This document shows positions 1,991-59,969 of a stretch of DNA of 64,000 nucleotides, piece by piece; the first letter of the stretch is position 1, and each line of letters opens with the position of its first letter. The DNA is from a virus (taxonomy: Duplodnaviria; Caudoviricetes). Made by a program: the position numbers and the translations under genes. The notes beneath the pieces were generated by a model, which saw only the letters and a program-made list of their open reading frames with translations, made no database searches and was not told where the DNA came from. The stretch covers positions 5,532-69,531 of IMG/VR virus record IMGVR_UViG_3300037400_003531. The stretch is one strand, 5' to 3'.

Positions 1991-2044
1991 TGCAAAAATA
2001 GTAAGGTATTTTTTTTTGTCACAACCCGTAAAGGATGAAACTTT
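1991..2044 (-). promoter_or_regulatory. Boxed (putative late) promoter 1, for hub/fibre genes
   Basis: -7 box TATTTTTGCA (1991-2000) plus dyad aaaggatgaaacttt (2030-2044), 29-nt gap. Confidence 0.8.
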
Positions 2045-2059
2045 AATACTTACTTTTAA

Positions 2060-2278
2060 TTAGCGACATTGCGCATCTATATAATCATGAAGGGCTTTTT
2101 TTGAACTAAAGGCACCACCCTCTAAGATACAATTACCATCCTCTAGTCCATAAATGACCGTTAGTATGCTACATTGTATCATTCTTATATTGATTTCAAT
2201 GATTTTCGCTTCTCTAACCAATCCTTTGTCAATATAAAATATTGATTCACCTAGACCAAATTTAGTCTTTATTTCCAT
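2060..2278 (-). CDS. Small hypothetical phage protein
   Basis: 72-aa ORF, tightly packed in the replication operon. Confidence 0.7.
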   Translation of the reverse strand: MEIKTKFGLGESIFYIDKGLVREAKIIEINIRMIQCSILTVIYGLEDGNCILEGGAFSSKKALHDYIDAQCR

Positions 2279-2280
2279 CT

Positions 2281-2478
2281 TTATTCCTTTCGTTTATAAT
2301 ATGGGCATATTACTCCACATGCCTTGGGTCTGTATGGCCGGTGGGCTCTGTTCAGCACTCGGCTGCACTCTTGGTGTCTACCACCAAAATATTTGACCCA
2401 GGAGTAATTTTCACAATTTCCACAACAAGGCCTTATTTCTATTTCAGCTATGTCAAAAAGTGTGTATTGCTTACCCAT
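2281..2478 (-). CDS. Small Cys-rich hypothetical protein
   Basis: CCGNCENY...C..C pattern; operon packing. Confidence 0.6.
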   Translation of the reverse strand: MGKQYTLFDIAEIEIRPCCGNCENYSWVKYFGGRHQECSRVLNRAHRPYRPKACGVICPYYKRKE

Positions 2479-2484
2479 GATATC

Positions 2485-2688
2485 TCAGCAATTAATTTGA
2501 TAATTCTCTCCCCAGTACATCTTAAGGTCTTCACTGATGCATGTTGATGCATTAAAGTAGGACTGAAAACCACTGATTGGTTCGTTTACTTTGGCTGGTT
2601 CGGTTAGGTCAACATGCGCCATATATCTATGGCAGGTCTTTCTTACAGGACAGTTTTCTCCATTGCAATGTCTTATGTCGTGATTCAT
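2485..2688 (-). CDS. Small Cys-containing hypothetical phage protein
   Basis: DIRHCNGENCPVRKTCHRY N-terminus; operon packing. Confidence 0.7.
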   Translation of the reverse strand: MNHDIRHCNGENCPVRKTCHRYMAHVDLTEPAKVNEPISGFQSYFNASTCISEDLKMYWGENYQINC

Positions 2689-2706
2689 TTCGTTGTATTT
2701 TATATG

Positions 2707-4770
2707 TTAATATGGGCAATTAGTTTCATTAAAAAAATCAGTGTAAGGCTCTGTTCGGACTGCTTTGTTCAAACTTTCCTCCCAATTATAGTGGATGTTT
2801 TCAGCTAATGAATTCTTAAGTCGGTTACTCTCTTTCTCAAAATAGAGTTTGATAAAGTTGTCTACGGCAGAACCTTTGTCGCGCCATTTGCATATCTCTA
2901 TGCAGTTTGTACAGTTCGATTCTAGTATTTCTTGTATAGTCGGATTGGGTAGAAATTCTTTGGAGTTAATCATGAAGTCCTGATTTACTCTATGTAGTAT
3001 CAATACATTTTGCGCTAGGTCAGGTATATTGCCAGTGCCCGAAATGTTATTCATACGAAGAAAGTTTCCGGACTTATTCGGATGGGCTACCACATGTATG
3101 TGTATGTCTAGTTCCTTGGCTAGGTCTGTCAAGATGAGCATTGTCCGTTTTTGCCTTTCGTTTTTATCTCCGTCAAGGCTGTCTATATCCAATGTCATAA
3201 GGTTGTCAAACATCACAACATCGAGGTCTATCTCATTCTTCAACAAACGTATTCTATCTACTATTTGGTTAAAGTCATTACCATATTTGTTGTTGAATAT
3301 TCTCATGTGTTTGTCAATCCAAGGGTCTATCTTATCACATACCCAATCTGGTGTTTCGTAAAAACCTGACACGTTTGTTGGAACGTTGAACATCTTTCCT
3401 GCTGCTTGTAGGTACAGCCAGTTCTTTTCTTCTTCTCCATCAAGTTCGCCCGTCCAAAGTGCAGTCTTATATCCTCTCTGAGCAGCATTCAGGATGAGCA
3501 TGTTCAGCACGGTTGTCTTTGCACTGCCCCTATAGCCCGACCACACGGTGACATGCTTACGACGAAACCCAACAGTAAGCCTATCTATCTGTTCTACACC
3601 AGATGGGATATAGTTGGCTATGTCGAACTTCGGTCGCTTGATTTCCGACATACGTAACCATATAGGACCTTTTTCGTTATCTTCTACTATCGGTTCAGCT
3701 ATTGGCTTAACTTCACTCTTCATCATCACATGCTGTCGCTTATACTGATAATCACGATAGGCATTCTGATCATAGGCATCAGGCTCAAAGTGTAGCCTAA
3801 AGTCTCTCCAGGTATAGGACGAACAAGAGCTATGATAGCAAAAGAATGCTAATGCGCCATTGTCATGTTGGAACACCATACTATCCGGATCCTTATGGTT
3901 CGAGTCAAATGGGCATTCTTTGAGTATGTATCGTGTACCACCGGATATACGAACAGTTCTATATTCTATATTGTGTCTGTTCAAAAATTCTACAATATCA
4001 AATTGATTCCTACCGAAATTATTCTCCTTAGATGGTGTTGGCTTTTCGTTAGGAAAAAGGTCAGCTATCTTCTTAACATACTCTATCGAATTTGGTTCTA
4101 TCGAATCTGGTATTTTCCAAAACTTAGACAATCGCCAAGGATGCTCTTTAGTGTTCGTTCCTTTTTTTGCATATGTACCATAGAGTTTTGTAATCCTGCT
4201 TGCATTAGACACTTTCGTATCGCAATGTACCTCTTCCGTGTCAAACATCATTGCAATAGTCTTCAAAAAATGCTCCACTACGTTTTTGTTCTCTTCCGTA
4301 TTGGCCATTCGAACAGGTATCAATATATGTATTCCATTGCCTGATTTGCATACGATGAGACTTCCTAGGCCTTGTTCCAAAAGATAGTTGTACACTTTCC
4401 TTGCTACTTTGTGAGCCGCTTCTAATTGTGTTTCTGTACTACCTATCCCGGCAGGACGTTCGGGGTCAAAATCAAGCAGTATGAAGGAACGACCATTAAT
4501 GTCGTTGTCCGAAGTCTGATTCTTGGCATTCTCAATCAGCCTTTCTTTCTGTTGTCTGTCGTAACATTCTTCCTTGATGCTGTTCATCACAAAATAGATC
4601 TGCATATTGTCACGCTCCGACAAAGGCTCTATTTCTCGGATGATGTTGTCTAATGAACGGAAGTAGCCACTGTATGACCGTTTGCCTTCAAGACAGCGTA
4701 TCTCGCAAAGCTTGGCACCATTGTCCTGGAATATCTTCCACCAGGTGTATATCTGTTCTCTGTCTATCAT
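2707..4770 (-). CDS. AEP (PrimPol-type) primase - Zn finger - SF4 helicase fusion
   Basis: AEP motifs LLDFDPE, KSGNGIH, CDTKVSNASRITKLYGT; Zn site CPF..H...CYHSSC; helicase motifs VWSGYRGSAKTT, VMFDNL, VVAHPNK, ISGTG. ATG at 4770 overlaps the upstream TGA (ATGA coupling). Confidence 0.85.
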   Translation of the reverse strand: MIDREQIYTWWKIFQDNGAKLCEIRCLEGKRSYSGYFRSLDNIIREIEPLSERDNMQIYFVMNSIKEECYDRQQKERLIENAKNQTSDNDINGRSFILLDFDPERPAGIGSTETQLEAAHKVARKVYNYLLEQGLGSLIVCKSGNGIHILIPVRMANTEENKNVVEHFLKTIAMMFDTEEVHCDTKVSNASRITKLYGTYAKKGTNTKEHPWRLSKFWKIPDSIEPNSIEYVKKIADLFPNEKPTPSKENNFGRNQFDIVEFLNRHNIEYRTVRISGGTRYILKECPFDSNHKDPDSMVFQHDNGALAFFCYHSSCSSYTWRDFRLHFEPDAYDQNAYRDYQYKRQHVMMKSEVKPIAEPIVEDNEKGPIWLRMSEIKRPKFDIANYIPSGVEQIDRLTVGFRRKHVTVWSGYRGSAKTTVLNMLILNAAQRGYKTALWTGELDGEEEKNWLYLQAAGKMFNVPTNVSGFYETPDWVCDKIDPWIDKHMRIFNNKYGNDFNQIVDRIRLLKNEIDLDVVMFDNLMTLDIDSLDGDKNERQKRTMLILTDLAKELDIHIHVVAHPNKSGNFLRMNNISGTGNIPDLAQNVLILHRVNQDFMINSKEFLPNPTIQEILESNCTNCIEICKWRDKGSAVDNFIKLYFEKESNRLKNSLAENIHYNWEESLNKAVRTEPYTDFFNETNCPY

Positions 4771-5507
4771 TCTTGCCAATAATTATCTTTGTGTTCTACA
4801 TTAATTTTTTCGCCCCAACCTAACGATAGCTGGGAAGATTCTCTATTTACATCGGTTTCTTTTCTTTCCCAGGTTCTAACTGCAGCCCTCCAATCTTTCA
4901 TTGGATTTTTGCCAACTTTCCAACCAATGCTTTCGTAATAGTTCCAAAACTTTTCTGCATCAATGTGATTCCCCCTTTGATGACAATAATCTAGGATTTC
5001 TTCAATTGTTGGTTTGACAAAACTTTTTTCTTTTTTATTTGAAACTACATTAGCATCTTCTTTTTTCTTTAAAATACCTTGTTCTTTATCGTCTTCTGTT
5101 ATAAGTTGAATAGTCGGTTGTTCGTCAGTTGTTTGTAAGTTGAATATAGGGTTGTTTGTTAGTTGTTTGTTAGTTGTTTCTACTTTAGTTTGTGGCAAAT
5201 CATTGTAATATCCATATTCACAGACTGTTATTATTGTAAATCTGTTTGTGGGTTGAATAGTAATTACTTTGTCGGTTGTTAGTCTCTTCAATGCTGTCCT
5301 TATTGCATTTTGTTTGACGCCTGTTTGCTTTGAAAGTAATGATACACTTGTTGCAAAACTACCTTTCGAAATAAGATGCCCCTCAAAAAAAGTGTCATTA
5401 GTGTTTGCGTTAAGCAAACATCTTATAAGTACAGCTATGGTATTGGGGTCAGTTATCCATTTGTGGCTGTCGTATTCTCTGTTAAGTCTTACATACTCTT
5501 TTTCCAT
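4767..5507 (-). CDS. Phage replication initiator (lambda O / DnaD-like architecture)
   Basis: N-terminal wHTH (SLLSKQTGVKQNAIRTALKRL), T/N/Q-rich linker encoded by direct repeats, C-terminal FVKPTIEEILDYC..DAEKFWNYYESIGWKVGKNPMKDWRAAVRTWE. Confidence 0.85.
   Translation of the reverse strand: MEKEYVRLNREYDSHKWITDPNTIAVLIRCLLNANTNDTFFEGHLISKGSFATSVSLLSKQTGVKQNAIRTALKRLTTDKVITIQPTNRFTIITVCEYGYYNDLPQTKVETTNKQLTNNPIFNLQTTDEQPTIQLITEDDKEQGILKKKEDANVVSNKKEKSFVKPTIEEILDYCHQRGNHIDAEKFWNYYESIGWKVGKNPMKDWRAAVRTWERKETDVNRESSQLSLGWGEKINVEHKDNYWQE
5101..5180. repeat. Iteron-like direct repeats inside the initiator gene (candidate origin)
   Basis: TAAGTTGAATA x2 and AGTTGTTT x3 (plus GGTTGTT variants) within 80 bp. 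Lambdoid origins lie inside the O gene. Confidence 0.55.
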
Positions 5508-5673
5508 ATCAAGTCATTTTTGTTATTCATTAATCGTATGTCAAGTTTTTAAAGAAAGGGGCGGGTAAAACGACTTGACAAAAAAACCCTTGTCACCGGC
5601 TCATGACTTCCGATCTAGCCCCTATGACTATAAACTAATAATTAATCCTTTCGATTCTTATTCGGATACTTTT

Positions 5674-6099
5674 TCAATCTTGCAATAGCCTTTCATTCGG
5701 TTCCGGAATCGTAATCCCTAACATGTCACTCGCAAACATCCTCAGCTGCATACAATATAGGCTGAAGGTAACTGTATCCATTTCACTCGTCCTATTGGGT
5801 ATTGTCGTAATCTCACCTGTATTAGGATTTACTATATCGGTTCCGGCAAACATCACCTTGCACATTTCATGTACCTGCTCTTCTGTCGTTACATTCTCCC
5901 ATCCAGCATCAATCAGGCCATGCAGTATCCTTGGATATATCTGCCCCCACAGCCATCTGTTCTGTTGATTACTACGGCTATGGTGCATCTTCTTTATCGT
6001 AACCTTATAAAAACCATCACCCAATCCATTGAGCAACGTTTTCATAATGTTTCGACCTAGGATTCTGCCTTTCTTCTTTTCAATGATGATTGGTTCCAT
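5674..6099 (-). CDS. NinB/Orf-like (DUF1367-like) recombination accessory protein
   Basis: RSNQQNRWLWG...RTSEMDTVTFSLYC..LGITIPEP pattern. Confidence 0.65.
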   Translation of the reverse strand: MEPIIIEKKKGRILGRNIMKTLLNGLGDGFYKVTIKKMHHSRSNQQNRWLWGQIYPRILHGLIDAGWENVTTEEQVHEMCKVMFAGTDIVNPNTGEITTIPNRTSEMDTVTFSLYCMQLRMFASDMLGITIPEPNERLLQD

Positions 6100-6102
6100 T
6101 TC

Positions 6103-6357: not shown

Positions 6358-6460
6358 ATCTAGTTAAAAGTTAAAACATACATTAATATACTCTATTCCT
6401 AAAATATTTTTACCTCTTCGAATACATAATTTGTAGATAAAGGTATTTATTATATCATAT

Positions 6461-6470
6461 TGCAAAAGTA
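6461..6470 (-). promoter_or_regulatory. Host sigma-type promoter (-7 TACTTTTGCA), no dyad box; replication operon
   Basis: Matches the Bacteroidota TAnnTTTG consensus in an AT-rich intergenic region. Confidence 0.65.
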
Positions 6471-6638
6471 CAAATAAATATTGATATGTGGAGTAAAATG
6501 TTTAATAAATGTGCTATGTAATTACCTAAATCATTGAAATAAAATGTATTGTAAATTTGTTAAAAAATACAAAGGAAATGTCAATGACAAAATATAGCTA
6601 GATTAAAACTCATGTTTAACTAATTTAATCATTAAAAA

Positions 6639-7117
6639 ATGAATAAAGCTAATGATATTAATGCCTGCAAAAGGTTATTCAGAATCAAAGAAATTAAAAA
6701 GATGACTTGGCAGCAAAGGCCGATGAGATCGGTGTCAAGGAATCTACCTTACGGCAGATAAACGGCGGTAGGTTGGACCTGTCGAGAAAGATGTGCAATA
6801 AGGTTTGTGACCATTTCCAAGAATTCAACCTCGAATGGTTGCTCAACGGCAATGGCAACATGTATGTCGACGATCTTGAACCAAAGGACGAAAAGGATAA
6901 ATACTATGGATGCGGTACAAAGGCAACTGAATTTCAATCAGTTGCCTTACTTTGTAAACAGAATATAAACAGAAATGAAAAACTTCTAGTGTACCCGGAG
7001 CGAATGTTCCTTGTTCAGGTCATTATAGCCGGAGGCATGTTCATACTTGCGTGGCATCATGTCTGTGAGAATATTTGTGATGTTCCGCATCTTCTCAGGT
7101 GTAATGTCAAGCAATGA
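6639..7117 (+). pseudogene. Cro/CI-type HTH repressor split by a 1-nt deletion near 6717
   Basis: Frame from ATG 6639 gives MNKANDINACKRLFRIKEIKKMTWQQ. After CAA-AG the -1 frame gives ADEIGVKESTLRQINGG...FQEFNLEWLLNGNGNM, a typical Bacteroides HTH ending. Confidence 0.75.
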
Positions 7118-7828: not shown

Positions 7829-7834
7829 ATGTTG

Positions 7835-10237: not shown

Positions 10238-10255
10238 CTTCTATCTTTTTTCTAT

Positions 10256-10309
10256 TGCAAAAATAGAAAGAAAATGTATGTCATGGCTCTATTAAAAGGC
10301 TGAGCCTTT
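10256..10309 (-). promoter_or_regulatory. Boxed (putative late) promoter 2, for portal
   Basis: -7 box at 10256-10265; dyad aaaggctgagccttt at 10295-10309; 29-nt gap. Confidence 0.8.
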
Positions 10310-13159: not shown

Positions 13160-13172
13160 AATAAACCATTTT

Positions 13173-13203: not shown

Positions 13204-13214
13204 AAAAAAAACTA

Positions 13215-13628
13215 TTATTTTTCTATGGGTTCAAAGCCAAACAAAACATCGTTGTCAAAAATAAGAAACCTTTCTTCTCCATTTTCTTTAACCACAGGAT
13301 AGCGAATGCTTATCCCAGGTGTATTCAAATGAGAGGCTCGCGCTAATGGGTCTAGGCCAGCCAACGACTGATTCTTTCTCAAATAGGCATCAGAATATTC
13401 AATATATCGACCATTCGAGAAGTCAATTTCGATCCAGTCGCCTGGCTTCACAAATCGGACTGTCGGACCAACAGAAATAACCTGTTGCTGATGGCTGTAA
13501 TCACCTTTCTTTTTTGTAATATCTACTACGCCAGGAACAGCCGTCTGGTCTTCTTCGTACTTATAGGCTGTCGTTACTATTTGATTGTACGTTGGTACGA
13601 TTTTTTTGTATTCTTTTCTTCTTTGCAT
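13215..13628 (-). CDS. GroES/Cpn10-like co-chaperonin
   Basis: QQQVISVGPTVRFVKPGDWIEI...ERFLIFDNDVLF matches the GroES pattern. Confidence 0.65.
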   Translation of the reverse strand: MQRRKEYKKIVPTYNQIVTTAYKYEEDQTAVPGVVDITKKKGDYSHQQQVISVGPTVRFVKPGDWIEIDFSNGRYIEYSDAYLRKNQSLAGLDPLARASHLNTPGISIRYPVVKENGEERFLIFDNDVLFGFEPIEK

Positions 13629-13866
13629 TTTGTGTGAACTTTTGAAATTTTACATTTACATATATATTACAGATGTGTGGGATAATTAGGCATTTGGGTT
13701 TCTCTCCCTTTGGCAACAGATATTTTACATTGAATACCATCTGCCGCTTTATACAAGCCATAAGATTTCTATACATCATATGGATCAAGTCCGGTTTACA
13801 GCCGTACTTTTCCGCCAGCTCATTTACTAAATCCAACGGCAAAGTTATTTTTCCTCTGTACCGCAT
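13561..13866 (-). CDS. HU/IHF-like small basic protein
   Basis: LVNELAEKYGCKPDLI...LIIPHICNIYV; basic; crAss-like synteny. Confidence 0.5.
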   Translation of the reverse strand: MRYRGKITLPLDLVNELAEKYGCKPDLIHMMYRNLMACIKRQMVFNVKYLLPKGEKPKCLIIPHICNIYVNVKFQKFTQNAKKKRIQKNRTNVQSNSNDSL

Positions 13867-14327
13867 AAAAACTGTACTGCCATTTCAGAAATAACATTCC
13901 GAGGATTCTTTGGAGCTATCATCGGTCGAAATTTCGGATTGATGCTATAGAAATCTAACTTCCCATTATCAAAATTGTTTCGTTTTAATACGTGTTCCGG
14001 ATTCTCCTCCATATCACGTAGTAACTCATACATACGTTGGGAGGTAATTCCGAGGGCTATACGTATCTTATAACGACCACTTTCGTTAGTGGATAGCTGG
14101 TCTAATATGTCGTCATCTTTCAGATTTTTGGTGACAGAAAGCTCATGCCGGTTCTTCATCATCATGGCCAAAACGTCCATCTGCCTACTCGTAAGGATAT
14201 GGTGTTGACGACCACTTGGAAAATCTATATCGTCTCCTTTTTCCTTGTTGACTTTGAGGCAGATGATTTCAAGCCAGTACCGATAGAACTGGAACATGTC
14301 ATCACACCTTATCTGCCGAACTTTCAT
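13845..14327 (-). CDS. Winged-HTH putative transcription regulator
   Basis: HILTSRQMDVLAMMMK...KIRIALGITSQRMYELLRDM...YSINPKF. Confidence 0.55.
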   Translation of the reverse strand: MKVRQIRCDDMFQFYRYWLEIICLKVNKEKGDDIDFPSGRQHHILTSRQMDVLAMMMKNRHELSVTKNLKDDDILDQLSTNESGRYKIRIALGITSQRMYELLRDMEENPEHVLKRNNFDNGKLDFYSINPKFRPMIAPKNPRNVISEMAVQFLCGTEEK

Positions 14328-14330
14328 GAC

Positions 14331-14630: not shown

Positions 14631-14963
14631 CTATTTTAATTGTTGTTTCAACGTTAGCTTTTCTGATTCTTTGTTCCGGATATACCGTCTGATATTCTCT
14701 TCCTCTCTCGTCTCATCATTCACATGGGTCATAATCTCTCTCCACCCCATCCCTTTCGGTAGATTAATGTATTTCCCGAGTCCATACTTCCTCTGGAATT
14801 TCAAATCCCAGTTGGCTATTGTTAGATGCTCAGTCTCCGAACTGCCACAATAAGGACATATGTTCATCGTCTTACCGTCCAACTCTATTTGCTGTGGGTT
14901 CTCTAGACATAGACAGCAAGCGCAGCATTCTACCAATATTCTATCATATTTCTCGTCAGCCAT
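14631..14963 (-). CDS. Zn-ribbon protein of a type common in crAss-like phages
   Basis: CCACCLCL...CPYCGS...WDLKFQRKYG. Confidence 0.7.
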   Translation of the reverse strand: MADEKYDRILVECCACCLCLENPQQIELDGKTMNICPYCGSSETEHLTIANWDLKFQRKYGLGKYINLPKGMGWREIMTHVNDETREEENIRRYIRNKESEKLTLKQQLK

Positions 14964-15036: not shown

Positions 15037-15046
15037 TGCAAAAATA
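15037..15046 (-). promoter_or_regulatory. Host sigma-type promoter (-7 TATTTTTGCA), no dyad box
   Basis: Consensus match; upstream TCGATTTTTATTTG is near-identical to that of the 19775 promoter. Confidence 0.7.
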
Positions 15047-19774: not shown

Positions 19775-19784
19775 TGCAAAGATA
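19775..19784 (-). promoter_or_regulatory. Host sigma-type promoter (-7 TATCTTTGCA), no dyad box; drives tRNA/ncRNA and accessory operon
   Basis: Perfect Bacteroidota -7 box; followed by a boxA-like CGTCTTTGAAAG. Confidence 0.75.
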
Positions 19785-28000: not shown

Positions 28001-29607
28001 AAGGGTCTACTGAACCATGACATCATTCCATAAACTCCGCCTTTTACTCGGTCTTCAATATTGTATAGCGAGGGTGTCAATATGCCTTGGGCTAATACGC
28101 TTCTGTCTCCATAATCAGGATATACTACTACAGGCCGCATCGCTACATAATCGTCCAATAAGCTACCTAATTCTACTAACCTTATTTCACCTCCAAAAGT
28201 AGCCAAACGCCTCTTTAAGTTATTCCGGTCGCTCGCCAGCACGTTTATACCATAGTTCATCAACTCCTTTACTTCACTTTGTGGTTTTAGGTTCTGTAAA
28301 AAATCATTTCCATTCGCACTATCACCACTTTCTATTCGCACTACATCACTCCAGTTCCCATATCGGTCCTGAAACTGTACTCCAAATCTATAGGTTTCAT
28401 GATACTTGAAATATCGTATTTCAGAAGCAGATTTGTCAAGCTGCGATTCCCATTCATATTTTCCAAGGGTTCTAGAAAGAGCTATCTCTTTGTTGTTTCT
28501 AAATCCCAAACTATTGAAAACGCCTCCTACCTGTGTCCCCAATTTTATTTTCGCTCTCACAGCACTACTTACATAATAGTGCTTTTCTTTGATATTACCG
28601 TAAAAGGCTGTATTGTCTTTTTGGGTCATCGTTTGGCAGGTGATGTCTTTCGCTCCGACATAAAGCAAATAGGTGCTTTCCATGTCCTCACCGGTCCTAT
28701 TTGTATCCACATAAACAGCTTGCCCTGCGCTATCTATGCTTAGGTCTGCCAGCCTCTTCACTATGGGTAGTCCGTCTTTCGAAATTCTGACGATGCTATA
28801 TAGCCGGACTCCATCATAGTCTTTTCTTAACCCTCTCATCAGTATTCGAAAGCTACAAGCCACATTCTCATCTGGCGCACTCCCTCGCTCGTCATCTGAT
28901 AGATAATGCATATCAGACACAGACACCACACTACTCTCTTGTGCATACTCATGATAGTAGGTAAAGGCATACTGAATCGTGCCACTGGGAAACAGACCAT
29001 TACTATTGTTTATGCGCTCTATGCTCATCGATTCACTCCCTCCTATCTCTTGAGCATAGTCGAAACTTTTATCATTGTAGGTCTTGTCTAATTGCATGAT
29101 GTTGATGAGCCTCGGCTGGTTCTTACCATCCGTCCAATAGACTTTTTGTATTTCTTCCGCTTCGTAAAAAGTCATTGCCTCTATTGGATATTCCAGGTCA
29201 AAGTTCAAATCTCCTTCATACAGCAAATATCCCTTTACCGGTGCTCCGTCACTTGCTCCGTCTTCAAAGTCTACACGATATATATAGTCCCTATTAATGG
29301 AAATCAGCTCTCCCGTTTCCGGATACCTAACCCAGATGATACCATGAGTGAATACTGCCATCTTGTTGCCTATGACTGCAACTCCTAGGACAGTTCCTTT
29401 TAGATTGTCCTTTATCCATTGACCATTGGTGTTGAATTTTACTGTTATTTCTGCTGGGCCCTTTTCGTTTGTTAATACAAACTTGCTCGTGTGGCGGTCT
29501 GTCACGAGTCTTAGGTTCCTATTCTCATAGGCAAACCGAGCATCGAACTTGCTCATCGCAAGGTCTCTGTTCATGCCTATAGGCGTAATCACTGCATTCT
29601 TTCTCAT
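25027..29607 (-). CDS. Muzzle / tail stabilization protein (P22 gp10-like)
   Basis: 1526 aa; GMNRDLAMSKF..FAYENRNLR, KVYWTDGKNQPRLINI, YFKYHETYRFGVQFQD, LEIANSGKVTG. Confidence 0.85.
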   Translation of the reverse strand: MRKNAVITPIGMNRDLAMSKFDARFAYENRNLRLVTDRHTSKFVLTNEKGPAEITVKFNTNGQWIKDNLKGTVLGVAVIGNKMAVFTHGIIWVRYPETGELISINRDYIYRVDFEDGASDGAPVKGYLLYEGDLNFDLEYPIEAMTFYEAEEIQKVYWTDGKNQPRLINIMQLDKTYNDKSFDYAQEIGGSESMSIERINNSNGLFPSGTIQYAFTYYHEYAQESSVVSVSDMHYLSDDERGSAPDENVACSFRILMRGLRKDYDGVRLYSIVRISKDGLPIVKRLADLSIDSAGQAVYVDTNRTGEDMESTYLLYVGAKDITCQTMTQKDNTAFYGNIKEKHYYVSSAVRAKIKLGTQVGGVFNSLGFRNNKEIALSRTLGKYEWESQLDKSASEIRYFKYHETYRFGVQFQDRYGNWSDVVRIESGDSANGNDFLQNLKPQSEVKELMNYGINVLASDRNNLKRRLATFGGEIRLVELGSLLDDYVAMRPVVVYPDYGDRSVLAQGILTPSLYNIEDRVKGGVYGMMSWFSRPLISEEDLSPADIDDLEEPNRITRHGGLEVRHFHPLPPTNRYYGSDGGYGSNAELVNNYEGYIANGSDSPFKTIDYTIWANVYPWQEKSVNNSQVTVENRASHLRSEFFVDQSIETFHSPEVEYLSEMAKMDMDGVKMRIVGLVPLTYHNEGVYMAAERIAEENYFHTPKREVQQGGVADTYMGQWQFTEFGGIQADFHDDYVGMDEENHHVDYYGTNKIYPFHTKTLTYEEVIENYDRLRGPGLGTFSPRYICESKSTLQKKIYDSIRYSFESIPLDDEVTIDIDKPSYFNTVDSGLVQFEVDGGAKIFDFSVNRMVVPNVRTKEWGNYEYTNHFVYPGIGTLVDRAAGQEDRRTTASSCVVGTEAVPVQYRGTTGMVLHLKSVTRNNKKEISALPKFGTYNDVYANNGTPLERSRGIEWADNTESAVTSRTFDMSGKRYMWDTIGQYGGFTQKSVIANTQLTNVICGNNYGIFYLAELYRDDQDIHNRFGGESEEALAANTWIVCGEAVSLRDSYNRLKSVVQIEWSMGDTYYQRYDNLHTIPNTEEDLNQIVDIVSFMCETRVNIDGRYDRNRGLENNENTRPTNSNRINEAYGQTPNYFQYRALDHRKKIQEEYPMTVAWTKTKQKGEFTDVFTNITLANTIDMDGAKGAIRGLVKHFDDILTFQDSGVGRILFNEQQAVQTESGVPLEIANSGKVTGSYYLNEHLGCHNKWSIVKSPLGTYFMDDGQRDLFYIDSQRSIHSIGVDKGLGSWAKEVADMSHIWGLNRFECLRGLYDKKNSEVMFVTRTAALSYSEQIGYFTSFYDYEGTPFMESVLGHEIMLRTMGSDYAGSGAKTILYEHNAGRYNYYFGSFRTYWTELICHSDGSDKDSTLADKTWTNVSFQFDTFDDSQEDQKDRYKEWEHFDRLDCMTEYQQGTTTWEGLYPRIAKKFRMWHSDMPRDGYTEKEYGQMTDRFRNPWIKLRLTKTKNLDKDWRSVLHSVIVGYLE

Positions 29608-30026
29608 TTCTTCTTCCTTTCGTAACTAAAGACTTTCTCTCCCTTCATCAATCGGTCGTGCAAACGTTTATTCAGTTCTTCACTGATTCGAACAAAATAC
29701 AATCTCGCTTTGGATGTCTTTCCTTTGTGCCACATGAAGTAATATTGTATCTTTGAGATATTTTTATATCTACGCTTATGATTCGGGTCCGAATTCATCT
29801 TTTCCCAGTCATATATCTTATTCTGGAACTCATAATTCTCTGTCGCAACTAAATTGATCTCTCCCATATCATAAAGCAATTTCAGGATATATCCTTCGTC
29901 CATCATCTTATCTCCCAAGCGATACAATAGTTCATCCATAAGCTCCTTCATTTTCGCTTTTGGTATTGGTTCTCCCACCCTTTTAACTGTCATATTCAAC
30001 CAGTTCGTTTCTTGGCTATAAGGCAT
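29604..30026 (-). CDS. crAss-like IHF/HU-like basic protein (start may be 30026 or 30074)
   Basis: Located between ring and muzzle genes; LLYDMGEINLV...YYFMWHK pattern. Confidence 0.55.
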   Translation of the reverse strand: MPYSQETNWLNMTVKRVGEPIPKAKMKELMDELLYRLGDKMMDEGYILKLLYDMGEINLVATENYEFQNKIYDWEKMNSDPNHKRRYKNISKIQYYFMWHKGKTSKARLYFVRISEELNKRLHDRLMKGEKVFSYERKKK

Positions 30027-30768
30027 TCTTTTCCTCCTCTCCTTGACTTCCTTGAATCTTGCGCTTGAAAGCATTATTTGTGTATACTTGTAATGCTCTT
30101 GCAAATTCTGACAAGTCATCATTTGCGTTATTCTTATCGTCCCTGGGCTGCCATGCGGCCGCTGTGATCTCCATCGTTACATATTTCATCAGCAACGGTA
30201 TGCGCCCTGCCTCCATTGGAAACTCCCGGTCTTCTATGTCGCACGCCACTACTTCACAGTTGTCGTCACACTCCATGTCACCCGCCGCCTCTATGTCGTC
30301 AAACAGGGCCGTCATTCTTATCCGCTCCAGATGCATAAATCCCATATTATGTCCCGTCACATATAGTTTGCCATCCGGTCCTATCGTCACGTAAATCAAC
30401 CCATACAGCCATTTATTGTATCCTACAAACTGAAATTGCTGGTAGGGCACCCACTGAAATCTATATCCATACAGAAAGCCTGCTGGTGGGGCAACATTCA
30501 CGCTGCCTCTTCCTATCACTGTTGGCACCTTTTCTGTGCTAACTAAATACGACTTACCACCACAGATGTTGCCATCATTGCCAGATTCTACATCTACACA
30601 TATTGATTGATAGTCAGCGTCTTTTATTTTTGTGTTCGGATTCGAAAGCAAATAGTTTCGGTATTTGCTCATCAGAAAGATGATATGGTCAATGTTGATT
30701 ATCGCATCATCACTTATCGTCTTCGAAAAGTCCTGGATAGCATGTGCTATCTGTCCAAATGTCGCCAT
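30016..30768 (-). CDS. Tail tubular / ring protein
   Basis: MATFGQI..ISDDAIINIDHIIFLMSKYR..DYQSICVDVE...EFPME..QPRDDKNNANDDL. Confidence 0.8.
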   Translation of the reverse strand: MATFGQIAHAIQDFSKTISDDAIINIDHIIFLMSKYRNYLLSNPNTKIKDADYQSICVDVESGNDGNICGGKSYLVSTEKVPTVIGRGSVNVAPPAGFLYGYRFQWVPYQQFQFVGYNKWLYGLIYVTIGPDGKLYVTGHNMGFMHLERIRMTALFDDIEAAGDMECDDNCEVVACDIEDREFPMEAGRIPLLMKYVTMEITAAAWQPRDDKNNANDDLSEFARALQVYTNNAFKRKIQGSQGEEEKNAL

Positions 30769-30786: not shown

Positions 30787-30840
30787 TGCAAAAGTACTAT
30801 TTATATACAGCATCTTTCTTTTATCAAAGTTTCATCCTTT
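30787..30840 (-). promoter_or_regulatory. Boxed (putative late) promoter 3, for ring/muzzle/cargo operon
   Basis: -7 box at 30787-30796; dyad aaagtttcatccttt at 30826-30840; 29-nt gap. Confidence 0.8.
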
Positions 30841-37615: not shown

Positions 37616-37669
37616 TGCAAAATTACAATGTACTTCCCTCTCTGAATTCCATTTAAAGGTTCATCCTTT
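37616..37669 (-). promoter_or_regulatory. Boxed (putative late) promoter 4, for capsid operon
   Basis: -7 box TAATTTTGCA at 37616-37625; dyad aaaggttcatccttt at 37655-37669; 29-nt gap. Confidence 0.8.
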
Positions 37670-37706
37670 ATTCATGTCTATCTAATCTATCTTTTCTATC
37701 TATCTT

Positions 37707-37760
37707 AAAGTTTCAACCTTTTTACTCTTTTTCCTACACATTTTTTCTCCTATCTTTGCA
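37707..37760 (+). promoter_or_regulatory. Boxed (putative late) promoter 5, for + strand cargo genes
   Basis: Dyad aaagtttcaaccttt at 37707-37721; -7 box TATCTTTGCA at 37751-37760; 29-nt gap. Confidence 0.8.
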
Positions 37761-50910: not shown

Positions 50911-50921
50911 TCCTTATGTTT

Positions 50922-53900: not shown

Positions 53901-56900
53901 CTGATAGTCTTCCATGATATTCTTGGCTATCAGCTCTTGGTATTCGTTCTGCAATGCCCGACCGCTGATTGTATTGCCAAACATCGGTATGTCAAACATC
54001 GCCTCGTTATGCAGGTCTGTGATAGACAAGATACGCATTTGGCTTCCCATCTGCTGCTCATGGTCCTGGAAATGGTCAGGCACCGGCTGCTGGATGCCGT
54101 ATTCGCTGTAGCTAACCTCATCAACATAATCACTGTTGTACCTGTCGCCCATCACATCGTCCATGTGGCTTTCGTCAGCATATGCTGCATCGGAAAGGAT
54201 GCCCATTAGCTCGCTGTATGTTCTGTGTTTCCCATCTACCGGATTGATGTCTATTTCTCCACTCAGACCGCTTTTAATAGCACTCTCAAATTGGATGGTA
54301 TCTATACCTTTGCCATTGTATGTTCCTTTGCATATAACGAAGCCATATTTCTCTGTTTTGGGTGCTTTTTTGCCTACTCTATGGAAGCCTTTTTTATCAA
54401 CAACATATTCAAAGCCGTCATCACCTTTTACCTTAACACCGTCTGCGACTATGTTGTTGTTCATCCAAATGTGTCCGTCACGGTAGATCGCACGTCCGTC
54501 ATAAGCAGTGCCCTCCATGAAGTCGAACATCGCTATAAGTTCATCACCAAACTGTATTCTGCTGTCACCTGCAGTTTCATTTACACCACGCAGGATAGCA
54601 TCAGCAAGGAATATCATATATTCACTGTTCTTCTCCTGAATCGGGACTTTTCTGTATGGGAATACGGCTGCTCCACCGTCACTGACTTCCGGAGCATAGT
54701 TGAGCTTGTCCATCTGTGCATAAACAAAGCCTTTCAACGGCTGACATAGAAAGTCAAGGTCATTCACGTTGAAATTGCCGCTTATGATACGCTGGTATGC
54801 CTCTTCTTGCTTGCCACTCATATCCCACTGGCCCTGCATGGCAGCACGTTTCCTAAACGATGTAGGAGAGCAATAGCCTTGTGCGTTTGCCACATCGTTT
54901 TTGTCGAACATAGGTACGACTGTCTTTTTCAGATTTTCGTAATGGGTAATAACAGCCTCGCGATCTACACCGTCTTTCATTTCTCTCTTGGCTTTCTCTA
55001 TAAGATAGTCAAAAGCATCTGAGACGGCTTTCTGTGTTTTCTCAATAGGCACCAAGAAGTCTTTCAGCTTCATGCTTCTCTCTATGCCATCAGAAAATCT
55101 ATGCTTGCCCGTCGAATCCTCGTATGTGGCGGTCTCATTCAATCGCATGGCGGGCGAATGCAGCTGGGCATAACGCTTCTGGAAGTCTTCTGCGTTCTTG
55201 TAATATGCTATATCTGTTACGGTGAGCTGGATGATATTGACAGAAGCAAAGAAGTCGTTCCAAACAAACTCACTGATTTTATTTTTCATTTGTTCTTCCA
55301 ACCAGGCTCTATCATGCTTCTCCAAATCGTCTTTCATAAAGAATTTGTCTATCCAATCATAGACATCTACATCTTTTCTTTTGTCTTTATCATATCTCTT
55401 ATGGGTATCAAAGAGGCCCATCTTCTTCCAGTATTCAAATTCCTCGTCACATTTGGCCTCCATAAAATTCGAGATATGCCTTTGAGCCGCTTCATCGAAG
55501 GCCATATAGTCAAAATCTCGTCCATTGAGATATTCAACAATATATGAAAGTATTTCGTCTTCTTTGTTCAAGAATGACAAAAACTTAAGATTTACTCCGT
55601 TTGCATCGGAAGACTCTGATATAATTCTCTTCAAGTCTTTCAATGTCAAGTTGCCGGTCTTATATCTGCCAAGTTCCTCTGCAAATTTCTCCACGTCCTT
55701 GGCACTCATGTCAAAATTCTTTGTTGGCAGGCTCCCATCAACACAGGCTTTGTTCAAGATGTCTTTCATCCTGTCCATTTCCTGCAATAGAGTATCCACC
55801 AACTCATGAGGTATCATGCTTTGGCACTCTTCCAAAGTGTAACGTTTCCATCGTACAAACTCACTGCTTGGCTTGTTGGAGAATATTGGCATTCTATACC
55901 ACGCATATCTTTTTTTGTCATTAACTTCATGTGGCTCATGTTCCCAATAGTCAAACTCTGTAAGCAATGAAAGTGCATATCCAAGTTCAGATAGTTTTGT
56001 GTATTCAACATCATTGAATGATAGCTGGACTTTATAATCCAGTTCGGCACGCATCCGTTTTCCGTCTTCGCCATTCAATTCCCTCAACCATGCATTTCTC
56101 CAAATTCCGTTCTTCTTAAACCATTTGTATCTTCCGAAGTTTTTCTCAATGTAGGCATCGTATTCCTCGTCACTCATGAAGTTCTCATGGTTCCCCAGTT
56201 CGTCAAACAAACGCATACTATACGATGGTGTGGCAAAGGTATAATAAGTCTTTCCGTCACTATATGCAGATGACTCTACCTGAGCCTCAATATACCCTTT
56301 GTATTTTTTTTCTAAGAGGTCTTTGAAAAAATGATATCCAGTCTTTTTTGAACGGTCACCATCCATTAACAATTTTGTCGGATTATCTCTCATGACATTC
56401 ATTATTTCCAACACTTCTCCCATAAACCATTCACGTTCATTTCTTGTCTCTTTACTCTCAAAATGGTCTTCAAGATAGTCACCGACGACATCGGGGTTAA
56501 GCATTCCAAGGCCAATATCGTAATACTGTTCAGCCATCTGCTCGGCTAATTCCTTTATGAATGTTTCTCTCTGTTCGCCTTGCATGCTTTTATCTCGGTT
56601 CAGCCACTTCTTACGCACTTCTTCTATTTTCTCTTTGGCTACTTTTATCTTCTCTTTGTCAAACAAAGGCATGTTGTCAGATGTAACCATTCTACCACTA
56701 TCATCTTTCATTGTAAGTGACGAGCCTCCGCTTCTCAGCAGATCGCTTGCTTCATCGATAGCCGTTGTAACGCTACCCCTTTCGTTAAGCACATGTGTCC
56801 TAAACTCGTATGTTTTTAACTTACTATTCCATGTAGCCTCAACGTATGTGTATGTCAATGTGTCTTTTCTGAAGTTCTGGAAGAACTCGCTTCGTATAGG

Positions 56901-59897
56901 CTCTTCTTTTATCGCATCAAGGACTTCATACAGCCACGGATTGTGGTTTGCATGACGGTTTAACTCCCTCTCCATTGCTTCTATAGTGTAGCACCCTCGC
57001 AGCCAGTTAAGGCATTTCTCAACAGCTTTCCCTGCATCTACATATACTGGCATGTCATATCCATACCTGTCTTTCTGCATCGGGTCAATCATACGTCCGA
57101 ACAAACGGCGTATCTGCTTCGACAATGTCTCTCTCGCACTCAGCTGGCGCTGTCCGACCATCCAGTATTCTCTCTCCTGTTCCTCTCTCGCCACAATGTC
57201 GTTCTGCATGGAACGCTCATCATCGCCTTCTTGCTTGACCATCTTCGGCTTTGCGATTCTCAGCTGCCTGTTCTCTAACTCAATAAGCTTCGCACTGCCA
57301 TACTCCATGAAGGCATCGAAATGCGTGTAGATGAAATCAAGTTTCATCTTGTCTCCGTCTTTCGCATTATCAGCGTTAAAGTACATTTCTTTGACGTACT
57401 TGAAGACATTGTTGATGTCTATAAGGTCAAGGAATTCCTCTCTGGACAGTCGTGCCAAGTCTTGCTCTGCAGTGTCACCATGGATTTCCATGAAATGTTT
57501 AAGGTTGTCCTCTCCAGTAGTCCCCTGCAATATGGCATTCCTGTACACTGACTTCTTCCTCATATTGTCTATGAGGGCAGAAACCATGGCGACAATGTTG
57601 TTTCCAATATAGGAGCATTCGGTCTGCGATATGCCCACATCGTTATGCCTTACCTCGTAAAGCAGCTGGTCTATATAGGGCTGTGAGTATTCCCTTACAA
57701 AGGCCTGACGGTAGTCTTCCAACGGTATTTCCTGTGTCTCTAAGCTGGCCACATAATCGTCATCTTCCCAGTGCATGGAACCAGTCTCATAAACGACAGG
57801 GCCTTTCTGTTCGCTGAACGGCACCCACTGCAGCTGCAACATGATAGGCTCGCCCTTGTACAGCAATACGCCATCCTCATCTTCTTCATAGTTATGCTTG
57901 ATCTCCTGCATGCTCCCAAAATCACTGGCGACGAAATCCAGCGGATATTTGTACGGGTCTTCTTCGTTCTCGAAAGCAGGGCAGACGACATTGAAGCCAA
58001 GGACATTGGTGCCGGTGATACGGCTGTTCCCTTCCTCGTCAATGAATATGCCGGGGCTGCTGGTCTCTAACATGGACTTGTATGCAGATGTCTGCACTCC
58101 ATATCCGACTAGCTTGTCAATATCGCTTTCCCCCTGCCGCTGGTAAGGGTCTGTCCTAAATGTCTTAAAATCTATCACCCTATACTTTACGCTCTTGCTG
58201 TCCGAGTCGTAGTAGGCAAGGAGCATGTCAAGAGTTCCCACCATGGTCTCGCTTTTCCCGTCATGATTGTACCTCACCGCCATGGGAAACTCGTTGGTGA
58301 ACACTTTCCAGTTGTTCTTGCCGTATGCTTGGTCGAACGCATCCGTCACTTTCAGCAGGCTGTTCAGCAGGTCCGCTCTGCCTTCCTTTGTCATGTTCTT
58401 CGTCAAGAAGCCGCTCCTCCCCGTGCTTTCAAGCAGCTGCTCCAGCTCGTCAAGCTGTCCCATGCCAAGTAATTCCGACATCTTGTCCATGGTCGCCTTG
58501 TCTAGCATGAAGAAGTCACGGCAGAAGCCGTCCAAGATATTACCTATTGCGACTGCCGGACGCGTATAGGGTGCCATACTGGCTTTGTCGGCTTCCGTCA
58601 TTTCTGACAGCCTACCATACGACAACGTGGCCTTGCTCTTAGTGACGCTCGTGTCGGCTGGTCTCCAATAACGCCCTTTGTCATACCAGCCACCAGGCAC
58701 CAGCTTGTCTGTGGCTATGCCATACAAATGATTGTTCGCAAAGTCGGGATGCCGGCATATGTCGTTATTGTTCCTTTCCATCATGGACTCTACATCCATG
58801 ATCGCCCTCTGCAGCTTGCTCGGGTATCTCAGCAGGTCTTTCCTTATCGGCTGCCGTTTCTCCATGACCTGCCCCTTGCCATAGTACACCCGCTTCGGAT
58901 TGAACCCCCTTCCGAAGTCCCGGAGGACCAACATCTCAAAGTCCTCCAGCGTCATGCTGTCTATCTCGTCTCTGCTCCAAACACCCATAGTGTCTGCCAA
59001 ATATCTGAAAAATTCTGTAAGCCACTCCCTCAAACGACCGATTATTCCAGCCGCTCCTCTCTTCTTCTCCATCCTCGACAGTAACGCCTCCCCCTTGGCT
59101 CCCGTCAGCCGAGCATGCACCTCCGAGGCAATAAGAAACTCTCTACGCTCTGCCGGCATGTCTTTCCACTTCTGCCCATAGTCAGCCGAACTCTCTACCT
59201 CTCCCCAGACCGATGTCTGCTTCATCAACTCAACTCCCCTCCCCCACAGCTCCGGGTTCGCATGCGCTACCGCCTCGTCCCACAAATGCGTGTACTCGTG
59301 CAACGGCGTGTCCGCATCTAATCCTTCCTCTCGTAAATAGATGTCTCCATCGCTCACATATCCTACCACTTCCCCATCTACTCTCTCTATAACGTCTCTA
59401 CCCTCTCTTTTATTGCCCTCTTCTTCTCCTTCTATACGTTTAACTCCTATCCCAATCGTCTCTAACTGCTTTACAACAGCATTCACTACTCCCTCTCCAG
59501 CTTCCTCTTCCTTCTTACCCTCCACAGGCTTCGCTAACCGCACACTCATGTACCCTCTCGCATTCCTCACTACCCTCACATTCTCCTCACCAAACATCTC
59601 TTTCAACAGCTCTACCTCTCTCGTCATTTCTGCCCCATCTACATACTCCTTCCTATCTACTCTCTCATATACACTATCCATCATCGCGAACAAATCCTTG
59701 CTCACGCCTACTTCTCTCCCTACCATGAAATACCCTCTTAACCACTCCCCTAACTCTTTATCACTCTCTTCTGTCCACTCCTTCCCACTCTCTTCCTGCC
59801 ATCGCATTATCCCAGTCTCTAAGCTCAACACGTCTACATCAAACTCTCTCTGAAACTCCCGAAACTGCTCATTGCCCGTATTTATACAACTTGCCAT
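50922..59897 (-). CDS. Virion single-chain double-psi-barrel RNA polymerase polyprotein (zincin + PD-(D/E)XK + RNAP)
   Basis: Catalytic GSDFDIDK (53274-53288), VGYRIPTEDKYSM; N-terminal TPLHEYTHLW (59286-59300); VGTLDMLL..VIDFKT. Start placed at ATG 59897, downstream of the promoter. Confidence 0.92.
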   Translation of the reverse strand: MASCINTGNEQFREFQREFDVDVLSLETGIMRWQEESGKEWTEESDKELGEWLRGYFMVGREVGVSKDLFAMMDSVYERVDRKEYVDGAEMTREVELLKEMFGEENVRVVRNARGYMSVRLAKPVEGKKEEEAGEGVVNAVVKQLETIGIGVKRIEGEEEGNKREGRDVIERVDGEVVGYVSDGDIYLREEGLDADTPLHEYTHLWDEAVAHANPELWGRGVELMKQTSVWGEVESSADYGQKWKDMPAERREFLIASEVHARLTGAKGEALLSRMEKKRGAAGIIGRLREWLTEFFRYLADTMGVWSRDEIDSMTLEDFEMLVLRDFGRGFNPKRVYYGKGQVMEKRQPIRKDLLRYPSKLQRAIMDVESMMERNNNDICRHPDFANNHLYGIATDKLVPGGWYDKGRYWRPADTSVTKSKATLSYGRLSEMTEADKASMAPYTRPAVAIGNILDGFCRDFFMLDKATMDKMSELLGMGQLDELEQLLESTGRSGFLTKNMTKEGRADLLNSLLKVTDAFDQAYGKNNWKVFTNEFPMAVRYNHDGKSETMVGTLDMLLAYYDSDSKSVKYRVIDFKTFRTDPYQRQGESDIDKLVGYGVQTSAYKSMLETSSPGIFIDEEGNSRITGTNVLGFNVVCPAFENEEDPYKYPLDFVASDFGSMQEIKHNYEEDEDGVLLYKGEPIMLQLQWVPFSEQKGPVVYETGSMHWEDDDYVASLETQEIPLEDYRQAFVREYSQPYIDQLLYEVRHNDVGISQTECSYIGNNIVAMVSALIDNMRKKSVYRNAILQGTTGEDNLKHFMEIHGDTAEQDLARLSREEFLDLIDINNVFKYVKEMYFNADNAKDGDKMKLDFIYTHFDAFMEYGSAKLIELENRQLRIAKPKMVKQEGDDERSMQNDIVAREEQEREYWMVGQRQLSARETLSKQIRRLFGRMIDPMQKDRYGYDMPVYVDAGKAVEKCLNWLRGCYTIEAMERELNRHANHNPWLYEVLDAIKEEPIRSEFFQNFRKDTLTYTYVEATWNSKLKTYEFRTHVLNERGSVTTAIDEASDLLRSGGSSLTMKDDSGRMVTSDNMPLFDKEKIKVAKEKIEEVRKKWLNRDKSMQGEQRETFIKELAEQMAEQYYDIGLGMLNPDVVGDYLEDHFESKETRNEREWFMGEVLEIMNVMRDNPTKLLMDGDRSKKTGYHFFKDLLEKKYKGYIEAQVESSAYSDGKTYYTFATPSYSMRLFDELGNHENFMSDEEYDAYIEKNFGRYKWFKKNGIWRNAWLRELNGEDGKRMRAELDYKVQLSFNDVEYTKLSELGYALSLLTEFDYWEHEPHEVNDKKRYAWYRMPIFSNKPSSEFVRWKRYTLEECQSMIPHELVDTLLQEMDRMKDILNKACVDGSLPTKNFDMSAKDVEKFAEELGRYKTGNLTLKDLKRIISESSDANGVNLKFLSFLNKEDEILSYIVEYLNGRDFDYMAFDEAAQRHISNFMEAKCDEEFEYWKKMGLFDTHKRYDKDKRKDVDVYDWIDKFFMKDDLEKHDRAWLEEQMKNKISEFVWNDFFASVNIIQLTVTDIAYYKNAEDFQKRYAQLHSPAMRLNETATYEDSTGKHRFSDGIERSMKLKDFLVPIEKTQKAVSDAFDYLIEKAKREMKDGVDREAVITHYENLKKTVVPMFDKNDVANAQGYCSPTSFRKRAAMQGQWDMSGKQEEAYQRIISGNFNVNDLDFLCQPLKGFVYAQMDKLNYAPEVSDGGAAVFPYRKVPIQEKNSEYMIFLADAILRGVNETAGDSRIQFGDELIAMFDFMEGTAYDGRAIYRDGHIWMNNNIVADGVKVKGDDGFEYVVDKKGFHRVGKKAPKTEKYGFVICKGTYNGKGIDTIQFESAIKSGLSGEIDINPVDGKHRTYSELMGILSDAAYADESHMDDVMGDRYNSDYVDEVSYSEYGIQQPVPDHFQDHEQQMGSQMRILSITDLHNEAMFDIPMFGNTISGRALQNEYQELIAKNIMEDYQQLVHDLGLESADKIQRNQVISELLKESIRRDSKYNIDLTYSVSLNSNGDFNIPLTDPTQAQKIEALLNSIIKSRINKQQVTGGPVVQTSAYGLSRRLEIEYQADGITPKCFQCMIPIPSEELADILEKRDEYGNRTGEFYTLEEALNLHLISAKDNAWLEKAVGYRIPTEDKYSMVPMKIVGFTPRAAGEVVMMPYEITTLSGSDFDIDKMYIMVPSMQPNDDYDPEKAKPEDYIEAEEDEEKYRGKADYASRFHFSKNLTTREGRDNKVLMMQYSVLTNADTVEKLFNPGNFENLREVAKEVVECEGSSMESGRNICFASTQVYFHKQNMTGGQLIGVFANNNTSHGFISMYPTTVRMTSKAYEVSGMRDVPFIFKIEEGGKEITVGPDMNNTIDKLRALDKNLISKNIACYLAASVDTAKDPVLSFMNINTTTVDAAMVLIRLGFSPRTVGLLMSQPIIKEVTEIYERRSNTGHYVDIQDVISDVYKSRFDKDWRKEKANLSRHLNDAFCFKPDVLKQNIKAEHGLAQMDGDAKRELDENLLMLFSGLKEIGTDLGDLTFATKFNSVTNAPGPRVSDNVAMYNRVERLYSPNAEGETRFRTYDDNGRVVRITEVSPILKAFYDTTINMGERTKSISELLFGKYFIQYTDQFQYILSYFTNHGIRLNNDEIDELAKDFMLYAVTDIPRWLPGEDVKERHNNKKRLFKNLPTTLMSMKRKSKYKDNPLLQALRVNRKNRRMPIRVIETVTSQFGRDGEQAISNAWTEMMNGDITEREFAQNLFIYAVSRGGFGYLPRNFAHLAPPELRQQILGGRYIESLQSPEALLKRHSSDHSSSNVMTYNDCDNFIMQFILNHAYNEKFIEEYNEVPTAEDTDALVVAVTNKEKYLDRQLMVKIPSHRMSSNSQVLYTKANELGVRYNLKEYDRRTAAADMLSMIDEDTREKQNQYRKRSPKETIEQRNIRKTSLSEKLGEIAGQINKEIEENPDKSCN

Positions 59898-59915
59898 ATT
59901 CTTTTTCCTTTTTTC

Positions 59916-59969
59916 TGCAAAAATACTAATTTCCTCCATCCCTCTCCCCAAATAAAAGTTTCAGCCTTT
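59916..59969 (-). promoter_or_regulatory. Boxed (putative late) promoter 6, for RNAP operon
   Basis: -7 box at 59916-59925; dyad aaagtttcagccttt at 59955-59969; 29-nt gap. Confidence 0.8.

Follow-up and report, generated by a model that had tools for sequence, protein, structure and literature searches.

The DNA analysed here (the window) is a stretch of 64,000 nucleotides from a phage contig of 69.5 kb with a completeness rating of 68%. It raises the question of whether a short inverted repeat, found at a fixed distance from six of its promoters, is the site of a common switch for the virion genes and, if so, which protein reads it. The window belongs to a crAss-like phage, encoding a portal (phrog_6547), a large terminase (phrog_6681), a major capsid protein (PF23898, phrog_11589), Ring1-4 (Ring1, PF24228; Ring2, PF25702), a muzzle (PF25731), cargo protein 1 (PF25725) and the tail hubs A and B; tail hub A corresponds to PF25724 at 1441-1971, and the hub B match (PF25711 at 1146-1460) was weak and below the cut-off. 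A 3009-aa ORF without any match in a profile search carries the motif DFDID at residue 2222. The catalytic motif of crAss-like virion polymerases is DFDxD, which DFDID fits, and the ORF is presumed to be the virion RNA polymerase. A megablast search of the GenBank phage collection with 20 kb of the sequence gave no match, and a portal search of IMG/VR returned two near-identical contigs only.

Dyad boxes upstream of the virion operons

The six 15-mers listed in the initial annotation were all present, and every one of them is followed, after exactly 29 nt as had been claimed, by a TAnnTTTGCA sequence (the -7 box) oriented toward the downstream gene. Sequences are given in the direction of transcription:

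2030-2044, minus strand: dyad box 1, AAAGTTTCATCCTTT; -7 box at 1991-2000, 29 nt downstream; heads the tail hub A/B operon
10295-10309, minus strand: dyad box 2, AAAGGCTCAGCCTTT, a perfect palindrome; -7 box at 10256-10265, 29 nt downstream; heads portal and Ring1
30826-30840, minus strand: dyad box 3, AAAGGATGAAACTTT; -7 box at 30787-30796, 29 nt downstream; heads the Ring2/muzzle/cargo 1 operon
37655-37669, minus strand: dyad box 4, AAAGGATGAACCTTT; -7 box at 37616-37625, 29 nt downstream; heads the operon of a 411-aa gene and the major capsid protein
37707-37721, plus strand: dyad box 5, AAAGTTTCAACCTTT; -7 box at 37751-37760, 29 nt downstream; heads a 487-aa and a 2432-aa gene
59955-59969, minus strand: dyad box 6, AAAGGCTGAAACTTT; -7 box at 59916-59925, 29 nt downstream; heads the 3009-aa ORF and a 1418-aa ORF

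Box 2 overlaps the stop codon of the terminase gene, and box 5 is the divergent partner of box 4. The earlier assignment of these sites to the hub, portal, ring/muzzle/cargo, capsid, plus-strand cargo and RNAP operons was correct on checking, and the use of the box in both orientations relative to transcription was seen as well.

The loose pattern AAAG-N7-CTTT occurred nine times in the window against 1.9 matches expected from shuffled sequences, none of 100 shuffles reaching nine. Six of the nine matches, all intergenic, fit the tight consensus AAAG-K-N-T-S-A-N-M-CTTT; the other three (44195, 57378 and 60310) lie in coding sequence, outside the tight consensus and without a -7 partner. This box array is far beyond chance. 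With its flanking bases the consensus extends to T-AAAG-K-N-T-S-A-N-M-CTTT-A (T-AAAGg.T.A.CCTTT-a from the relatives described below). The box is centred 37 nt before the T of TAnnTTTG, at a distance of about four helical turns from the middle of the -7 element, and the usual position of TAnnTTTG would place this centre near -49, with a span of the box of about -42 to -57. The box had been described as lying next to the -33 position; by this estimate it lies rather upstream of it.

Promoters of the primary sigma factor of Bacteroidota consist of a -33 TTTG and a -7 TAnnTTTG. The -7 element was found as TAnnTTTGCA at all six window sites and at all 22 boxed sites in relatives. At the -33 position, a TTG separated from the -7 box by 17-23 nt was present in 3 of the 22 boxed promoters versus 8 of 18 unboxed intergenic promoters of the same genomes, a modest contrast, as only about half of the unboxed promoters have the TTG. 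Judged by sequence, then, the boxed promoters carry the -7 element of a Bacteroidota primary-sigma promoter and lack its -33 element.

The window contains 14 TAnnTTTGCA sequences, ten of them intergenic, six boxed and four unboxed. The latter are the four that had been reported to lack the dyad, as they do:

6461-6470, minus strand: unboxed intergenic TAnnTTTGCA
15037-15046, minus strand: unboxed intergenic TAnnTTTGCA, TATTTTTGCA; heads the seven-gene operon encoding the presumed activator
19775-19784, minus strand: unboxed intergenic TAnnTTTGCA
62867-62876, plus strand: unboxed intergenic TAnnTTTGCA

The three minus-strand sites belong to a second class of promoters, in which a T-rich run immediately precedes TAnnTTTGCA; further members are found in relatives (L134:15288, L246:6377, L248:4821 and L131:2881), where TTGCTAAACAT is often present in the -33 region. 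Promoters of this class head a replication/lysogeny block, the regulator-terminase operon and a small-gene/ncRNA block.

Conservation and symmetry of the box

A complete, near-identical genome from IMG/VR (G001, 99.9 kb, 98%) contains the same six boxes and no further one of the tight consensus. Between both sequences, the boxes differ at 0 of 90 positions and the -7 boxes at 0 of 60, with 13 changes in 174 spacer positions and 16 in 240 positions of upstream flank. Within IMG/VR, six copies of the composite motif in a single contig were found only in G001, which is of the same species as the window phage; the loose composite pattern gave at least 115 matches there, mostly single ones, and is uninformative.

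More distant relatives were found through homologues of the portal, of a 160-aa winged-helix protein (see below) and of the 411-aa protein of the capsid operon, and their contigs were then scanned, allowing one mismatch in the box and spacings of 27-31 nt. Relatives at 55-68% protein identity yielded 22 boxed promoters in nine loci, with a spacer of 29 nt in 20 of them and of 30 nt in two, and none of 27, 28 or 31 nt. Orthologous promoters (portal, the capsid/cargo divergent pair, Ring2/muzzle and hub) keep the box, and the spacers at these promoters show no sequence relation. In bits per position, the information content is 1.35 for the box and 1.67 for the -7 box, compared to 0.23 for the spacer and 0.13 for the upstream flank. 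The scan of related phages proposed in the initial annotation thus found box and spacing kept while the spacer sequence diverged, and the possibility raised there, that the motif might be equally frequent at random positions or at other spacings, was not borne out either by the shuffled sequences or by the relatives. The counterparts of the window sites are:

Box 1, hub promoter: L134, AATGTTTCATCCTTT, 29-nt spacer
Box 2, portal promoter: boxed in L134, L244/245, L246/247 and L131, with unrelated spacers
Box 3, Ring2 promoter: boxed in L249, L251 and L252
Box 4, capsid promoter: boxed in L249, L251 and L252
Box 5, plus-strand cargo promoter: L249 (29-nt spacer), L251 and L252 (30-nt spacer)

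The divergent pair is kept in four genomes, at centre-to-centre distances of 52 (window 37655-37721), 48 (L249:9401-9463), 61 (L251:9830-9905) and 49 bp (L252:9837-9900). Cooperative binding across the pair was considered and dropped, because the distance between both boxes is not conserved.

The relatives also gave insight into the symmetry of the site. In the L131 lineage (portal identity 56%), four promoters show a variant box, xAAGG-N5-CCTTA (TAAGG-N5-CCTTA), again followed by a 29-nt spacer, so that the outer base is altered on both arms together; a search of IMG/VR for TAAGG-N5-CCTTA returned chance matches in coding DNA only. Moreover, the Ring2 promoter that carries box 3 in the window has AAAGTTTCAGCCTTT in L249 and L252, with the asymmetric inner bases flipped, and therefore the site behaves as a true dyad. 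The change on both arms and the flip of the inner bases speak for a site recognised by a symmetric protein rather than for a directional element. On the basis of these sequence comparisons, we consider it very likely that the box is a regulatory site bound by a protein and that it marks out a regulon of virion genes.

Several other features of these relatives were observed. In the L131 lineage a boxed promoter also heads a lysis cassette (Amidase_2), a tRNA gene (L131:9900-10000) lies between the boxed promoter and the portal gene, and the terminase gene (L131:6456-9851) contains an intein (PF14890, LAGLIDADG). The scan of L132/L133 (portal identity 62%) gave no boxed promoters; at L132:3587-16686, homologues of portal and Ring1 (62-63%) are flanked by genes for a TonB-dependent receptor, a Por_Secre_tail peptidase and OmpA, and this locus is likely what is left of a prophage in the chromosome of a member of the Bacteroidota, which hints at the host range.

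All relatives at 55-68% identity have an integrase gene adjoining Ring1 and keep a repressor-like gene. A locus 98% identical to the window (L164:13485-15192) likewise retains a 405-aa integrase and a full 155-aa repressor-like protein. At window positions 6360-7117 the integrase is absent and the repressor-like gene is truncated and frameshifted, as though the window phage had arisen by deletion from a temperate crAss-like lineage.

A candidate activator and the alternative readings

The reading we favour, and consider moderately probable, is that the box is the operator of a dimeric phage-encoded activator which replaces the missing -33 element. A symmetric dimer encoded by the phage would bind the 15-bp box, some four helical turns upstream of the host-type -7 element, and would recruit or stabilise the host sigma-A RNA polymerase, standing in for the -33 contact. 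A single switch would thereby govern the operons for the hub, portal/Ring1, Ring2/muzzle/cargo, capsid, large cargo and virion polymerase. The position of the box favours an activator, since sites outside the core promoter, such as this one, are typical of activators and rare for repressors. The initial annotation had proposed that a homodimeric phage factor switches on the late genes. Of this proposal, a symmetric, conserved site of fixed geometry at promoters lacking -33 was found; from it we infer that a protein binds the site, which protein this is, that it activates and does not repress, and that it acts late.

Regarding the factor, three kinds of candidates had been put forward: a winged-helix protein, IHF-like proteins and a DUF3853 protein. 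The last two kinds were not confirmed, as neither HU/IHF (PF00216) nor DUF3853 (PF12964) was matched at E<=1 anywhere in the 69.5-kb genome, and the ORFs concerned (13561-13866 and 29604-30122) had no Pfam match even at E 10. Two candidates, both encoded in one operon, are put forward here:

13845-14327, minus strand: 160-aa MarR-like winged-helix protein, first among the candidates for binding the box
14631-14963, minus strand: alternative candidate, a 110-aa protein with seven cysteines and a CxxC...CxxC zinc ribbon; first gene of the operon headed by the unboxed promoter at 15037-15046

The winged-helix fold of the 160-aa protein was supported by an AF2 model (pLDDT 78, pTM 0.76) consisting of three helices (residues 72-80, 82-92 and 96-108) and a beta-hairpin wing (114-129), with pLDDT >90 over most of residues 50-110; N- and C-terminal dimerisation helices were not clearly modelled. 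Foldseek placed the MarR-family proteins ZitR, SlyA and MepR at the top, followed by ArsR and Fur, with E-values from 0.015, and VIA-align Z-scores (<=8.1) were at the level of generic winged helices only. The protein itself had no Pfam match, and among 32 family members one matched MarR_2 at E 0.062. A profile of these 32 members, from the wider alignment, gave a marginal match to ZitR (E 0.0056); the smaller alignment of the family had no PDB sequence match. Proteins of the MarR family are dimers that read pseudo-palindromes of similar length and are mostly repressors, and winged helices occur also in replication and packaging proteins.

The winged-helix protein is kept in all relatives examined, with orthologues in L134 (60%), L131 (34%) and IAS virus (gp091, 'VpsT-like regulator', 35% over 74 aa), and an Atlas search with it returned as nearest clusters those named VpsT-like regulators. 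Its recognition helix is nearly invariant among relatives with AAAG-type boxes and differs in L131, a co-change of helix and box that is weak evidence because it is a single event in one lineage. In the window, the gene order of its operon is zinc-ribbon protein, 96-aa ORF, winged-helix protein, 101-aa ORF, GroES-like protein, 194-aa ORF and terminase; the order is the same in IAS virus (transcription factor, VpsT-like protein, HU, chaperonin, gp088, TerL). The zinc-ribbon protein has orthologues in L134 and L131 and a weak match to PF23451 (E 0.006), and the Atlas search with it gave no named family. Provided that the box is an activator site, the winged-helix protein is the leading candidate, a real possibility that still falls somewhat short of probable; it would be made from the unboxed promoter of the operon ending in the terminase gene.

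The same protein family also lends itself to the opposite sign of regulation. The box could be the operator of a repressor, a phage dimer acting as lysogeny or early regulator that silences the virion operons until it is removed, which would suit a temperate lineage whose relatives carry an integrase and a repressor-like gene, and a candidate whose nearest fold, MarR, is mostly one of repressors. However, repressors usually act within the core promoter, and the box, at about -42 to -57, lies beyond it; promoters without -33 are also expected to be weak unaided. Moreover, although the window phage lacks an integrase and its repressor-like gene is broken, all six boxes are unchanged, which speaks against an operator for lysogeny. 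We consider this reading unlikely.

It is quite unlikely, in our view, that the box is read by the host, either as an UP-element-like contact for the alpha C-terminal domain or by a host transcription factor, with no phage protein involved. UP elements occupy the region from about -42 to -57, the outer bases of the box are A/T-rich, and an A/T-rich upstream block lies at the same place in related Steigviridae promoters; in addition, the tripartite promoters of phage phi14:2 are reported to be transcribed by E. coli RNA polymerase alone (10.1101/2020.03.07.982082). Those promoters, however, have a good -35, which is absent from the boxed ones, and the conserved G/C positions and strict dyad symmetry of the box point to base-specific reading by a dimer. 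The sequence of the box also changes between phage lineages, and none of the 401 Bacteroidales genomes sampled contained the composite motif, which is therefore no general promoter form of such hosts, although the host of this phage may differ from them.

An upstream element for a redirected or alternative sigma factor, through appropriation of the T4 MotA/AsiA kind or a phage sigma-like protein, would account for a conserved upstream element in the absence of -33, as at T4 middle promoters. This we hold to be very unlikely, as a site 29 nt away from the -7 box is beyond the reach of sigma region 4, the box is symmetric and appears to function in either inner orientation, and no sigma-like gene was detected among the window ORFs searched. 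Finally, that the boxes arose by chance or act as RNA hairpins or terminators is negligible, even if all are inverted repeats and the terminase gene ends at box 2, since loose matches exceed the shuffled expectation, the position is fixed relative to the downstream -7 box and not to upstream gene ends, and the hairpins predicted for the box as RNA (0 to -6.2 kcal/mol, mostly no better than shuffles) are weak folds that rule out a terminator.

Relation to known promoter systems

The initial annotation knew of no description of such a box. This held for the present clade, for which we came across no such description, and our search found no phage upstream element described beside TAnnTTTG; it has to be qualified by a tripartite motif described for other crAss-like phages (10.1101/2020.03.07.982082), whose upstream block, as reconstructed here for Steigviridae, has the same position. 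Drobysheva et al. mapped the middle promoters of phi14:2 and described for phi14:2 and beta-crassvirinae genus VI an extended tripartite middle/late motif, located upstream of RNAP, portal, IHF and structural genes in related crAss-like phages (bioRxiv 10.1101/2020.03.07.982082). In our reconstruction, phi14:2 promoters consist of an A-rich run, then TTGACT/TTGCAT and then TAnnTTTG. In gut Steigviridae (portal about 42% identical to that of the window phage), promoters follow the pattern yAyTTA-N5-TTG-N19/20-TAnnTTTG, reconstructed from 84 promoters in 58 loci (L157-L243), and their upstream block ends 28-29 nt from the -7 box, at the position of the right arm of the dyad. An A/T-rich stretch, ataAatAat, precedes the yAyTTA block in Steigviridae-like promoters. 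In many Steigviridae-like loci and in IAS virus (L127:9650-9716), the yACTTA block doubles as the left arm of the hairpin that terminates the gene upstream, terminator and promoter overlapping.

By this reconstruction, the tripartite and the boxed promoters have in common a host-type TAnnTTTG with an extra upstream block, a location upstream of RNAP, portal and structural genes, and the assumption of transcription by the host RNA polymerase. They differ in that the tripartite promoters keep a -35/-33 TTG and have an upstream block that is not a dyad, whereas the window promoters have no -33 and a strict inverted repeat of 15-17 bp. Judging from these sequences, the box appears related to the tripartite promoter by position, not by sequence, and would be a lineage-specific variant with a strict dyad in place of the -33 element, because the Steigviridae block differs in sequence and retains the -33 TTG.

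A broader proposal, tentative and on balance doubtful, is that the family of 'VpsT-like regulator' winged-helix proteins present in the window, the relatives examined and IAS virus/Steigviridae might be a general late-gene activator, with the lineage-specific upstream blocks as its co-evolving sites: AAAG-N7-CTTT in the window, TAAGG-N5-CCTTA in the L131 lineage and TTAAT...yACTTA in Steigviridae. If true, it would explain the third block of the published tripartite promoters and the handover of the host RNA polymerase to the virion genes. The clade studied here offers an unusually clean case: the dyad is strict and at a fixed distance, -33 is absent, six operons encode most of the virion, and a single conserved winged-helix candidate has its gene outside the regulon. 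The question is thereby open to direct test. The box also provides a sequence rule for annotating late operons in this temperate crAss-like group.

The combination by which activator-dependent late promoters are recognised, that is, a common dyad and no -35-equivalent at several late operons, was found here. Among known regulators, the MarR proteins (ZitR, SlyA, MepR, OhrR) are the best fold and profile matches of the 160-aa protein, at remote similarity. Middle and late promoters of phage Mu have a -10-type element and no usable -35, and an imperfect dyad is bound by a small phage dimer, Mor or C, which recruits the host RNA polymerase. The boxed promoters resemble them in the upstream dyad, in lacking a usable -35-equivalent and in uniting several operons in one regulon, the dimer being a proposal here; in contrast, the dyad of Mu has its centre near -43.5, overlapping the -35 region, and that of the window near -49, and the host sigma is of the Bacteroidota type. 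Late promoters of P2/P4 are weak promoters with a TGT-N12-ACA dyad centred near -55, activated by the zinc-finger proteins Ogr and Delta. With these, the window phage has in common an upstream dyad at four or more late operons and a zinc-ribbon protein, here encoded in the operon of the winged-helix candidate, but the sequence of the box and the spacing of its half-sites differ, and the zinc-ribbon protein has no detectable similarity to Ogr; neither Pfam nor PHROG gave a match to Mor/C or Ogr/Delta among the window ORFs searched. An activator acting on an upstream dyad, the most likely design here, is a familiar phage strategy of which we found no description for this phage group.
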